Assembly (NCBI GenBank): GCA_964016885.1
Contig: OZ024743.1
Coordinates: 214,396,001-214,460,000, forward strand
Source of the DNA: Eledone cirrhosa
Lineage: Eukaryota
Reading direction: 5' to 3'
Length of the DNA stretch: 64,000 bases
Shown: piece after piece, positions 1,905-63,092 of the stretch
Position numbering within the stretch: position 1 is the stretch's first letter
Layout: the number at the start of each line of letters is the position of its first letter
Notes under the pieces: model-generated
The model's database searches: none
What the model was told of the DNA's origin: nothing
Seen by the model: only the letters and a program-made list of their open reading frames with translations
Position numbers and translations under genes: made by a program

Positions 1905-4756
1905 TTTCAAACTCGCGCACCGTTTCAAAAATATACTTACATGTTTACATTTATAATTTGCTTGTATATATATATATATATATATATATATATATATATA
2001 TATATATATATATATATATATATATATAAGTATAAATATATAAGTATAAATTAGCGAGAATCTAATTTCAGCTCAGGAATTAACGAAAAATAATTCATAA
2101 GATTTAGTGCTACAACATATATTAAAGGCCAAACACACTGAGATGGTGGTTAAACTAATCATCCGCACAGCGAAAAAAACGATATATATATATATATATA
2201 TATATATATATATATGCAGAGAAAGACCAATAGACTGTCGGGAATGACAAACTTTTTTCTTTCATCCCGCCACTGCGAAGAAAATAATTTCATTGTGATT
2301 TTCAAGTAATCATATATTAATCAAATATATGGTGCTTTACCAATTAGCTTCGAATACTTTTTGCTGACTGTTGCATTTAATTCATATTAGCTCAATCTTC
2401 ATTTTATTATTATATAATTGAAATGAAAGGTTGTAAAATATTAATTACTGTACCGTTTGTTTTTCATGTTATTTGATATATGTCTATAATTTAACGCCAA
2501 CATAAATTTCAATAATTGTCAGAATTCAGTTAAATTATTAAGATTGATTTAAAAAGATATACATACTTCCTCAGATATTCTATTTACATAGTAAAGTATG
2601 ACTCACATAGGAAATATAGAACACATTTCCGGTTAAATCTTTCTCGTAGACTATGTATTATATATATGATATTAGATATTCCTATTGCACTTATTACAGT
2701 TTTCTTATTGTTTATTAGATACTTCCCTGATAATTATTTATAATCAGATACATGCCACACATACACATACGGATATGTACGTATATATGCCTGATTATGT
2801 ATATATATATATATATATAGAGAGAGAGAGAGAGAGGGAGAGAATTAAGGCGTGCGCTCCACCATAGATATAAATATATAACAATGTATATAATATATAC
2901 GTTTATTTACGAATAAACACTTGAAATCCTTTAGACATGAAAGGTAAAAGGTGGTGGCAGGGCGCCACGTAACGAGTTCAAGCTGAAGCAACGGGAAGTT
3001 GACGACAGCTTATTCTGGCTATTTTGCCGTTGTCAAGCAAACGCACCCATCAAACTCAATTCCTTCTGGAATTCAAAGTAGGTACAAAAATAGTTTTAAC
3101 GCTTATGTATATGGACTGAGAAACCTCATTTGCAAACGGATATATTGGTAGGCTCGTCCTGATCAAGAAATAGAAATAATGTTCGCTAACTATCAGTAAC
3201 TCCCTGTTGTTTCTATTAGAATTCTTTAGGTGGTGCCTCGGCACCACTTTTAAAAATTCATACCTAAGGTTTTCAAATATTTATTCATATACATAACGTA
3301 TAATATCTGACATACACATGTTCATACTTATATATATATATATATATATATATATATATATATATATATATATATATATATATATACACACATATTACAT
3401 ACATATATATATATACATATACAAATATATATATACATATATATATATGTACACACACATATATATGTATATACACACACATATATATATATATATATAT
3501 ATATATATTTATATAAGTTTATGTATTTGTTCTGCAAGTTTCTTAATGTGACATCGTGTGTTGAAACGGACAGCTTTATATGAGTGGATGGACATGGTGC
3601 CACTATATATATATTAAATATTTATGGTGTATAGTTTTTTGCTACATCTCATAGGATTGATAGCAAAGTTTATTCGACTAATGATTGAACTTAGACGAAT
3701 AATATATACCACACGCACACGCACATACATACACATATAAACAAAATATTGTAAAATAAATAAATAACACTTTTCTTGATAATTATATATTGTGATTAAA
3801 TTAAACACTTATTTGTGAGCCGATCAAAATACATTTCTCTTGGCAATAGCTAGATGCTATATTAAAACAAAGAATCTTCTGAACTACTAAGAACTGTTAA
3901 GAAAACAATCTATTTTGAAATCTATGATCCAAAGCAACTGTGGAATCAGCAAAAATTATCGAACTTTCCTGTACTTTTACACAGGAACTTATAAAATCAA
4001 TGTGTTAAGGAAGACACACATTTATCGTGTTTGTGTTTTGTGCATGGAAAAATTACACAAAGAAAATATGTCATTATAGTTGTATTTATAGATTCTGAAT
4101 TGCAGACGGAAAAATTAATTACTATATTTTTTGTAATTTCTTACAAAATAAATTTACGTATATGTACAATATATATATATATATACACATATATATATAT
4201 ATATATATATATATATATATATATATATATATATATATATATATATATATATATGCTGAGGTTATATTTTTAATTTGTTGGGATTCAATAAGCTTAAACA
4301 TTTTTATAACTGATATAAAGCACTCATCAGTTGAGAGGAGTAAATATTCAATATATTAATAAATGGAAACTATATTTATATAACCATATTTATTTTATTA
4401 TATTTCAAGGGCAATCAAGGCAATTATGGTGCGCTTTCATCAGATAAAATACAGATTTGTTTTATAAATAAATATTGACCCAGAAAAAGGCAGCCTTAAC
4501 GGTTGAAGCTTCCTGGATATATATATATATATATATATATATATATATATATATATATATATATATATATATATATATATAAATGCATTATCGGAGAAAG
4601 CTTTTTAGCGATACTCCGGCCAAATTAGAACTCACTCAACAAACATTAGGAAATAAGTGAGTATATTCCTAATTAAGCGTTCGGGGTGCTAACTAAATGT
4701 ATTGCGTGGAAAATTGGCTGTATTATTTCATATGAGGCATATCGAATATATCTCTT

Positions 4757-4883
4757 CCCAGACAGAAGTCTCGTTTCATTATAGGATTCCTACAATTTGG
4801 GTGAAATTATACCAATTTATGTAGGGGCTAGTATACCATCAATAGATATATATTCAAGTGGGCTCCTATAATTCATCAGTGGG
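4757..4883 (-). ncRNA. Type I hammerhead ribozyme with a long stem II insertion, in a (TA)n-flanked ~440-bp unit (4581-5021)
   Basis: Minus strand: ccca-CUGAUGA-auuauagga...uccuauaau-GAAA-cgagacuucu-GUC-uggg. Stem I is ccca/uggg and stem II is 9 bp. Confidence 0.8.
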
Positions 4884-5119
4884 TGCCCCAATAATACTAA
4901 TATTGATAATCTAACCAACATCAGTATTTAGCGATAATCATCATCAGTGCCTGAGGTATCTGTCAGGTTGCTAGTCCAGCAGTTCTAAAGAAATACTAAA
5001 ACTGATTCAAAAATGAGGAATTATATATATATATATATATATATATACATTATGAAGAGAGAAGAAACATTTAGATATAATTAGTAATAAAATGTATCAT
5101 ACCTAAACTGTTCCTAAAT

Positions 5120-5207
5120 TCCTCGACTACGTAGTTTCGTGGCATAAACAAAAACAATATATCAAAGATATAGAGTCCTTGCGAGGTCTGCCGACTTATC
5201 AAGAGGA
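5120..5207 (-). ncRNA. Hammerhead ribozyme, U3-A8 core variant
   Basis: Reverse complement of the motif at 6264-6351. Confidence 0.75.
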
Positions 5208-61497: not shown

Positions 61498-62831
61498 TAT
61501 ATATATATATATATAAATATATATATATATATATATATATATATATATATATATATATATATATATGTATATATATATATACATATATATATATATATTA
61601 TGAAAATAGACAGAGAAGCCTTCAATACATAAAAAATCTTTATTAGCCTACAATGTTTCGTCCCATTAATAAGGACTCATCAGGGCAATTAAACAGATAA
61701 GAAGGTGTTAACGGCCACAACAAGCCAAAACTCTGAAGAAGAGAGAATTCATATCTATGAGAGCTTATGAGAGATATGAAGGAAAAGCATGCTAAAGCTA
61801 AAAGTTTGCAGTTGCAAAAATAGATTATATGTCAAGGAAGTGAGTAAAATGTCAAACCCACGTTGAAATTACAGTATGATACAAATACATTAAATACAAC
61901 ATGATATTATAATATGAGAATTACAATACAATATAATGGGTAATAAAGCTTAATATATGTATATATATATATATATCCATATAGATATATACATTTACAC
62001 AAATACATACTAACACTTAATAAGTATAAATATACTCTTGATAATATAAAATAAAAATAAAAACTCCCTGACGGGGCGCATAAACTATACAAAAAATAAA
62101 CTATACAAAAAATAAGCTATACAAGAAATAATATAATATAATATAATAATATAATAAAATAATATTCAGACATCAAAAATATACAAAACCACGTCACACA
62201 TATCACTTAATGTCAACATGTTGTATATAAAGTTTTACAAGGGCAAGAAAAAATATCTTAATAAAACTGGAGTATGTTGAAAAATATATATATATACATA
62301 AATACATAAGTACATAAGGTATTGATAATAAGTTCATAGGGGTATATGCAGTTTACATTTATAAGTTATCACAAAATATTATAAAATATAACAAAACAGT
62401 ACCTTATTTTTTGTAAAGTTTATTTTTTGTATATTTTATGCGCACCGTCAGGGAGTTTTTATTTTTATTTGATATTATAAAGAGTATATTTATACTTATT
62501 AAGTGTTAGTATGTATTTCTGTAAATGTATATATATATATGGATATATATATATATATACATATATTAAGCTTTATTACCCATTATATTGTATTGTAATT
62601 CTAATATTATATTACCATGTTGTATTTAATTTATTTGTATCATACTGTAATTTCAACGTGGGTTTGACATTTTACTCACTTCCTTGGCATATAATCTATT
62701 TTTGCAACTGCAAACTTTTAGCTTTAGCATGCTTTTCCTTCATATCTCTCATAAGCTCTCATAGATATAAATTCCCTATTCTTCTGAGTTTTGGATTGTT
62801 CTGGCCGTTAATGCTTCTTATCTGTTTAATT

Positions 62832-62872
62832 GCCCTGATGAGTCCTTATTAATGGGACGAAACATTGTAGGC
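62832..62872 (+). ncRNA. Minimal type I hammerhead ribozyme in a PLE pLTR
   Basis: gcc-CUGAUGA-guccu-uauuaau-gggac-GAAA-cauu-GUA-ggc. Confidence 0.85.
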
Positions 62873-63092
62873 TAATAAAGATGTTTGATGTATTGAAGGC
62901 TTCTTTGTCTATTTTTATAATTTTTCGGCTCTGTTGTATTACATTGAGCTATATCCTATACTGTCATTTCTATGATATGACGAGTGTGTTTTACTCCAAC
63001 GCACTCTAGTATTTTAATTCTTACTACGGCTCCCGATTGGTTGAGCTTTTTCCTATATACTGGTGTTTTGACCTTTATATATATCTGACAGT

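Follow-up and report, generated by a model that had tools for sequence, protein, structure and literature searches.

Hammerhead-bearing repeats in a (TA)n-rich region of the Eledone cirrhosa genome as probable Penelope-type insertions

We analyzed a 64,000-nucleotide stretch of the Eledone cirrhosa genome (contig OZ024743.1 of assembly GCA_964016885.1, positions 214,396,001 to 214,460,000; hereafter the window), an AT-rich piece of animal DNA with 80 (TA)6+ tracts, in which self-BLAST showed abundant tandem and inverted islands. These islands are very probably Penelope-type insertions into (TA)n, comprising three families of 3′ ends of Penelope-like elements (PLEs) and eight of hammerhead-bearing units that lack an open reading frame (ORF) and are likely copied in trans by a PLE reverse transcriptase (RT)-endonuclease. 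Judged from their sequences, 12 repeat families divide into three that are PLE 3′ ends or pseudo-long terminal repeats (pLTRs; D, H, and I) and eight ORF-less units (A, B, B′, C, E, F, G, and J), with P assigned to neither class.

The two classes share an insertion footprint. Eleven families served as queries against the animal's own genome, and we kept the 30 top-ranking loci for each; candidate scoring was limited to the best 40, and the 399-2,563 first-look candidates per family are not copy numbers. Nine of ten families showed two clustered 3′ ends at (TA)n and a ragged 5′ extent, and A showed one end. Measured from G12, the 3′-end distances were 91/260 for B, 86/151 for D, 92/203 for E, 62/163 for H, 40/120 for I, 67/145 for J, ~185/283 for F, and ~320/445 for G, with a single end at 196 in A and a distribution blurred by internal TA runs in C. 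Several 3′ ends lay at or beside a short TA within the unit itself. Head-to-head insertions carried the short end on one arm and the long end on the other in 58 of 62 autonomous pairs (D 18/18, H 7/7, I 33/37) and in 52 of 56 ORF-less pairs (B 8/8, B′ 12/12, E 11/11, J 15/17, F 6/8). This tally was made by hand, leaving out the edge-cut duplicate views L008, L273, and L281, and the D count includes one near-identical segmental pair (L070, L082). A fixed tail of ~50-170 nt distinguishes one outer end from the other, the arms are unequal, and the inner junctions are variable. At diagnostic sites, the arms of an insertion differed less from each other than copies did across loci in all eight families tested, as in B (0.07 vs 0.32), C (0.06 vs 0.18), J (0.07 vs 0.27), and E (0.25 vs 0.35, from two pairs only); loci overlapping the window or each other had been removed. 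The common footprint supports the mobilization by PLEs proposed in a preliminary description of this DNA.

The footprint suggests a course of insertion in which a PLE protein would cut both strands of the (TA)n target. Each free end would then prime reverse transcription at a fixed internal position, one of two that lie 40-450 nt downstream of the hammerhead core. Copying would proceed back through the hammerhead into the preceding unit and halt at variable points, which would account for head-to-head arms, one with a short and the other with a long end, for ragged inner junctions, and for tandem units. As the copies cross the predicted cleavage site, the template could not be a cleaved linear monomer. 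It would have to be either an uncleaved read-through multimer or a re-ligated circle, between which the genome does not decide. Since the ORF-less units show the PLE footprint, we infer that they are mobilized in trans by a PLE RT-endonuclease, and we likewise infer cleavage, the identity of the partners, and circles. In vitro, both strands are cut and extended by the PLE protein PAc, which initiates at two neighboring internal sites that match the genomic tail (PMC11167929). Hydra PLEs insert into (TA)n, and PLEs carry a tail at one end together with an inverted truncated copy (Craig et al., PMC8557442). Statements on published work, here and below, refer to the passages of each source that were covered.

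Rfam cmscan of the whole window (E ≤ 1) returned 148 matches, nearly all of them microsatellite-driven microRNA and none from a hammerhead family, so a descriptor scan was required. Scanning for the canonical CUGANGA core only gave nine matches and missed the families with a U3:A8 core. The type I descriptor accepted CUGANGA or its U3:A8 and U3.G8 variants and a stem II region of up to 200 nt, with interruption allowed, and 40 local dinucleotide shuffles served as the control. It gave 26 matches in the window versus a shuffle mean of 4.25 (maximum 10). A palindromic stem III was present in 14 matches (0.125 in shuffles), and 23 matches scored at least 9.5 (0.6 in shuffles). Among the 26, those at 2442, 3776, 10430, 29433, 38629, and 44536 were weak or low-complexity. 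The stretch rich in long interspersed nuclear elements (LINEs) at 11.5-30 kb, with one short (TA)n tract, held a single low-scoring match of the 26.

An inventory by homology comprised 28 complete motifs in the span 4581-62921 (A 1, B 4, B′ 2, C 7, D 3, E 2, F 2, G 1, H 2, I 1, J 2, P 1), about 20-22 of them undamaged by eye, and six half-motifs resulting from 5′ truncation (I 3, E 1, F 1, P 1). The more than 20 motifs of the preliminary description are thereby confirmed. Its roughly ten families are borne out by the 12 in the span; their unrelatedness fails for B and B′, whose 64% identity over the unit reduces the set to ~11 lineages. Just upstream of the span lies a 13th family, O (4258..4516, minus strand; type I motif 4399-4443 with a shortened stem III), and family P forms a head-to-head pair at 31379..31655 (motif 31590-31634, plus strand). 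The core boxes (C/U)UGAN(G/A)A, GAAA, and UH occur in order with stems I-III, as in predicted type I hammerheads. Stem III is palindromic in nine of the 13 families (B, B′, C, D, E, G, J, O, and P), as had been said of most of the motifs; A and H have an imperfect palindrome there, and in F and I the stem is a stable hairpin without a palindrome. Given the palindromic stem III, most of these hammerheads are predicted to cleave as dimers.

Three families are connected to PLE ORFs. Family D runs upstream into a frameshifted ORF with Pfam matches to RVT_1 and, C-terminally, to a GIY-YIG domain, and a second pLTR stands ~4.6 kb away in the full element L369. DKG, a CX4CxxC linker, and CxxC in this ORF assign D, by motifs, to the Neptune-type PLEs. 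In the window, D occurs as a head-to-head pair of 3′ ends (32724..33055; motif 32869-32898, minus strand) and as a 5′-truncated 3′ end (55555..56287, plus strand; U3:A8 motif 56085-56114). A Naiad origin of the U3:A8 motifs was ruled out, as the D endonuclease is C-terminal. Family H is represented in the window by the upstream one of two pLTRs that flank a 4.5-kb element and by an inverted 5′-truncated arm that precedes this pLTR; within 61597..63023, the arm occupies 61597-62119 (motif 61649-61683, minus strand) and the pLTR carries the motif 62835-62869 (plus strand). The start of its ORF lies within 63050..64000 (plus strand), the element runs beyond the window, and a second pLTR copy lies 4,521 bp downstream. 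Family I forms the 3′ terminus of an element of 3.1 kb; the pLTRs of this element are 3,096 bp apart, and PLE-like ORF sequence was present on the same strand in 18 of 30 loci. Its copies in the window are a 5′-truncated 3′ untranslated region (UTR; 58202..59097, plus strand; U3:A8 motif ~58996-59078), a 3′-end fragment with a half motif (44728..44872, plus strand), and a head-to-head pair of 3′ ends with half motifs (52256..52479).

The H and I ORFs contain DKT, an RW[R/K]-like motif (RWR), and a CxCx5C linker, with no CxxC inside the GIY-YIG core. By these motifs, which fit the description of Craig et al. (no CCHH), both are assigned to the Hydra-type PLEs. Pieces of the two ORFs searched in Pfam gave no RT or GIY-YIG match. 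Few homologues of the H protein carry a species name, and two of these come from Argonauta hians (40-43% identity). At a further locus, L304:3448-7448, D and I ends together with the DNA between them make up a composite that is repeated ~3 times at a 1.3-kb period.

Eight other families appear from their sequences to be retrozyme-like non-coding units. Their tandem periods are 702 nt for A, 591 for B, ~595 for B′, 422 for C, 480/483 for E, 555 for F, ~699 for G, and 1307-1342 for J, and each tandem unit carries one type I motif at a fixed distance from its ends. G and B′ form mostly partial tandems, which wrap into their own family tail. The longest stop-to-stop frame is 53-97 amino acids and the GC content 34-42% (A, B, C, E, F, and J units). 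Among the 30 closest copies per family, a PLE ORF was joined to the unit without a (TA)8 break in none of 30 loci for A, B′, C, E, G, and J and in one of 30 each for B and F, both resembling insertions beside another element. The preliminary description had offered solo pLTRs or retrozymes and had named attachment to a PLE ORF as the check; both identities hold, for different families, with D, H, and I running into PLE ORFs and the eight units closing on themselves (0-1 of 30 loci attached). Its unit size of 300-700 bp does not extend to J (~1.3 kb) or to D, H, and I, which are ends of 3-4.7 kb elements.

Within the window, family A is represented by a 5′-truncated copy (4581..5020, minus strand; motif 4761-4879 with a 95-nt stem II region) and family B by a head-to-head array with one short and one long 3′ end (5045..7183, both strands; U3:A8 motifs 5125-5202 and 5716-5793 on the minus strand, 6269-6346 and 6859-6936 on the plus strand). 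The B′ head-to-head pair (30474..31250) has an intact U3:A8 motif at 30544-30625 (minus strand) and a decayed plus copy. Family C occurs as an old copy with a decayed motif at ~7570-7600 (7298..7985, motif on the minus strand), as a head-to-head copy (47532..48582; motifs 47762-47792, minus strand, and 48275-48305, plus strand), and as a tandem array of ~420-nt period (59485..61497, plus strand; motifs at 59647, 60067, 60492, and 61214). Elsewhere in the genome, a 16-unit C array (L306:3457-9848) displays a four-unit higher-order pattern with a recurring 431-nt unit. The E array (51004..52227) is head-to-head, with motifs 51478-51551 and 51958-52031 on the plus strand and a half motif on the minus strand. 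At another locus, covered by both L092 and L118, one arm of a head-to-head E insertion belongs to the 480-nt subfamily and the other to the 483-nt subfamily, which suggests two templates or conversion. Families F and G form head-to-head arrays at 49037..50517 (U3:A8 motifs 49227-49306, minus strand, and 50278-50357, plus strand, with a long stable stem III) and 56283..57520 (motif ~56714-56791, minus strand, with a U3.G8 core and a stem III that is decayed here), respectively. The J head-to-head pair (44886..46796) consists of units of ~1,310-1,340 nt with motifs within 44985-45074 (minus strand) and 46661-46750 (plus strand). An upstream GAAA hairpin at 46625-46685 (plus strand), present in most of the 30 J copies, could give a type II hammerhead sharing the CUGACGA of the type I fold; we prefer the type I fold, with its 5-bp stem I and palindromic stem III.

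Core pairing was conserved across families. Among 32 recurring families, position 3:8 was C:G in 25, U:A in five, U.G in two, and C.A in none, a count drawn from 1.96 Mb of fetched and hence biased DNA, from partly non-independent families, and with the satellites L350 and L332 dropped from clustering. The base of stem II is G10.1-C11.1 in B, B′, D, E, G, H, and I, A-U in A, and U.U in C, F, and J; U.U also occurs in axolotl HHR_Amex2 (PMC7229834). We aligned the stems of B and B′ over 41 of 60 loci (1,160 pair cells) and found 96.2% of the cells in standard pairs, compared with 37-58% in slid controls. Five pairs were changed on both sides, two in stem I, two in stem III with the palindrome kept, and one in distal stem II. 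Compensatory changes are thus present; an absence of stem covariation, together with no cleavage in vitro, had been named as the refuting result.

Several observations weigh against Penelope-type copying of functional hammerhead units. The number of doubly changed B/B′ pairs was reached by 194 of 500 shuffles, and the covariation largely equals one split between the two subfamilies. The folding advantage of isolated motifs over shuffles is modest (z -0.4 to -2.8). Few of 11 motifs show the full three-stem fold in their minimum free energy structure; modest folding would be expected if the motifs were dimer-dependent, and we do not count it as support. Predicted circular folds are weak for E and F (z -2.9) and J (z -1.2). 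The opposite-end tally excludes C and G, whose ends were unscorable with the references used. At the DNA level (E ≤ 0.01), six ORF-less units gave nothing beyond one 25-bp match to bodies or 3′ ends of six PLEs, a result that points to neither an ancestor nor a partner, and since only the 40 best candidates were scored, a diverged autonomous parent could be missed. In published assays, one of nine Xenopus retrozyme dimers was cleaved in vitro (bioRxiv 10.64898/2026.07.22.740005), and PAc insertion did not require hammerhead cleavage (PMC11167929).

A serious contender, which we place a little short of even, is that the ORF-less units move through hammerhead-cleaved, host-ligated monomer circles rolled by PLE RT from both break ends. 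The units close exactly on themselves, C arrays reach 16 units, and private variants are common to the units within one insertion, a pattern that would fit multimers as well. Predicted circular folds are strong for A (z -11.0), B (z -6.4), and C (z -9.5), the stems and core appear to be kept by selection, and circles have been demonstrated for coral, mussel, and axolotl retrozymes (PMC7229834). One monomer circle would predict identical units, however. Against it as the sole route stand the four-unit pattern of the 16-unit C array, the B arrays, in which two alleles of a single site are distributed by position (outer vs inner unit, three loci), and the E insertion with one arm from the 480 and one from the 483 subfamily. 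Such heterogeneity fits a multimeric template or two templates, or later change at the DNA level.

It is unlikely that all families are solo or truncated pLTRs of autonomous PLEs, with arrays produced by later unequal crossover and hammerheads as passengers. That account is true for D, H, and I, a pLTR-to-retrozyme route has been proposed by Li et al. (bioRxiv 10.64898/2026.07.22.740005), and the four-unit pattern in L306 fits DNA-level duplication. In contrast, eight families wrap upstream of the motif into their own 3′ tail, with a constant period across dispersed loci (G 693-704 at 16 loci, F ~555 at 21, A ~702 at 14) and no ORF, and B and B′ kept a length of ~590 nt and the lack of an ORF as they diverged to 64% identity, with compensation in the stems.

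We consider it most improbable that the ORF-less units resemble short interspersed nuclear elements (SINEs) or miniature inverted-repeat transposable elements, moved by LINEs or DNA transposases, with the inversion representing terminal inverted repeats. LINE RT remnants do occur in the window (RVT_1 in four ORFs between 12.7 and 29.3 kb), and many insertions are palindromic, but the unequal arms, variable inner junctions, and fixed ~50-170 nt tail argue against this origin, as does the presence of the same footprint in ORF-bearing PLEs. Chance matches in AT-rich repeats are scarcely credible, because the lack of Rfam matches, the few weak or low-complexity scan matches, and the 11 false matches produced by one satellite in the 600-kb sample described below are set against 23 high-scoring matches versus 0.6, one motif per unit at a fixed end distance, and 3:8 pairing kept across families.

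The candidate motifs also have a genome-wide setting. We sampled 60 evenly placed 10-kb stretches (600 kb) at a score of at least 10.5 and obtained 68 matches, 14 of which came from the simple satellites L350 and L332 and were dropped. Subtracting the 3.9 expected from shuffles from the remaining 54 gives ~84 candidate motifs per Mb (bootstrap 52-120), which extrapolates to about 155,000-360,000 candidate motifs in the 3.0-Gb assembly. With 20 matches in 64 kb, the window has ~3-4 times the sampled mean, a density reached in 0.2% of resampling draws, the window having been selected and neighboring DNA being correlated. It thus marks a local hot spot within something that extends across the genome. 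The dense ecosystem of the preliminary description is accordingly not singular, and every component is of a published kind.

Tentatively, and with less confidence than for monomer circles as such, we suggest that at least eight independent ORF-less RNA replicons parasitize Hydra-/Neptune-type PLEs through hammerhead-cleaved and re-ligated circles, and that every replicon has a separate pair of sites at which RT starts, amid motifs on the order of 150,000-360,000 in more than 30 families. As an equally tentative part of this proposal, motif density here may lie far above published animal counts; axolotl has 126,247 hammerhead motifs (PMC7229834) in 28.21 Gb (bioRxiv 10.64898/2026.07.22.740005), coral more than 6,000, and mussel ~5,000 (PMC7229834), counts obtained with different descriptors and not like for like. 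If the proposal is true, this would be the first system in which the driver, template form, and ribozyme role of retrozyme transposition could be matched family by family.

Other islands and PLE remnants surround these insertions. A frameshifted Hydra-type PLE ORF remnant lies at 41900..43909 (plus strand; DKT, CxCx5C linker, YIG), and a second frameshifted PLE remnant with its 3′ UTR at 52490..54609 (minus strand) has a C-terminal GIY-YIG-like domain and relatives with a CX4CxxC linker. The 3′ UTR of the latter (52700-52800, minus strand; also in L306 and L371) contains CUGACGA, a 6-bp stem II, and GAAA, and no matching stem I/III cleavage block was found nearby. Comparison of homologous copies showed no supported hammerhead in the islands 1681-1943, 8173-8645, 32272-32722, 33068-33291, 36342-36765, 54661-55422, and 57845-58078. 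The 44.48-44.68 kb island, which the preliminary description had included within 44.5-48.5 kb, lacked multi-copy support among the loci compared. We found an abundant inverted repeat family between TA tracts at 54643-55437 (up to 11 matches in the 600-kb sample) and a near-perfect 160-bp palindrome of a multi-copy family at 1707-1866, both without a detected hammerhead, and a decayed relative of a hammerhead-bearing repeat at 1355-1500 (minus strand), intact in L291.

Permuted (SGC, CSG, GCS) and type II/III hammerheads did not exceed shuffle counts in the window, where no type-SGC permuted hammerhead with three stems was detected. A hammerhead-like motif in SGC order recurs in flanks of the loci retrieved (L005:716-814, L029:2669-2767, L163:777-875, L312:5734-5832, L160, and L185); its stems I and III pair across, stem II is not resolved, and blastn gave no match in the window. 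A very abundant short repeat, probably a SINE, occurs at 9599-9828, 26400-26673, and 34631-34847 (more than 70 matches in the 600-kb sample), the 26.5-kb copy being a palindrome. Several degenerate LINE copies with RVT_1 occupy 12000-29650, almost without (TA)n or hammerheads. Minisatellites of 52, 37, and 7 bp lie at 921-1116, 32113-32272, and 46076-46221, the last inside a J unit.

Which enzyme moves animal retrozymes and why PLEs retain hammerheads are open questions. A PLE driver was merely suggested in PMC7229834, and Li et al. argue for one from co-occurrence and homology (bioRxiv 10.64898/2026.07.22.740005). Autonomous PLE ends beside ORF-less units with the same two-end footprint and mapped starts provide direct substrates for a trans-mobilization assay. 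In the literature covered on hammerhead or Penelope repeats in octopus and cephalopod genomes, which did not extend to most subscription papers, we found no description of these families, and the passages covered of a 2026 Octopus vulgaris repeat annotation (PMC13282606) mention ribozymes zero times. As the motifs are also invisible to Rfam, a large ribozyme load may go unrecorded in such genomes.

The ORF-less families resemble metazoan non-LTR retrozymes (Cervera and de la Pena 2020, PMC7229834; Li, Clavereau and Pollet 2026, bioRxiv 10.64898/2026.07.22.740005) in being non-coding, low-GC tandem units with one type I hammerhead each and in coexisting with PLEs; mobilization of such units by PLEs has been proposed in both sources. 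Units here measure 422-1,340 nt, compared with 170-400 nt (PMC7229834) and 51-972 bp (Li et al.); J alone exceeds the latter. Unlike the canonical published motifs, those described here are PLE-style, with a palindromic stem III, a long stem II, and often U3:A8, and the two-end head-to-head (TA)n footprint is absent from the passages covered of both papers. PLE pLTR hammerheads, including the Schistosoma Cercyon U3-A8 motif (Cervera and de la Pena 2014, PMC4209133), share the type I fold, palindromic helix III, dimer prediction, and U3-A8 covariation, as well as many truncated and opposite-strand copies, and have low activity. They differ from the present set, in which helix III is mostly a 6-12 nt palindrome, stem II regions span 45-95 nt with extra helices, and candidates reach ~84 per Mb.

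The Hydra and Neptune clades (Craig et al. 2021, PMC8557442) show the same ORF motifs, (TA)n targeting, one-end tail, and inverted 5′-truncated copy; H and D here have long 3′ UTRs and measure 4.5-4.7 kb, whereas Hydra elements were described as generally <3 kb. Anolis Poseidon PAc (Frangieh et al. 2024, PMC11167929) provides the parallel of two cleaved and extended strands and of two internal RT starts defining the tail. PAc is an autonomous Penelope/Poseidon element studied in vitro, and trans-mobilization of ORF-less units is absent from the passages covered of that paper. PLE hammerheads, the U3:A8 core, and retrozymes have all been published already, and the concept is not new. New here are the family-by-family split, the footprint common to autonomous and ORF-less families, and the high genome-wide density.

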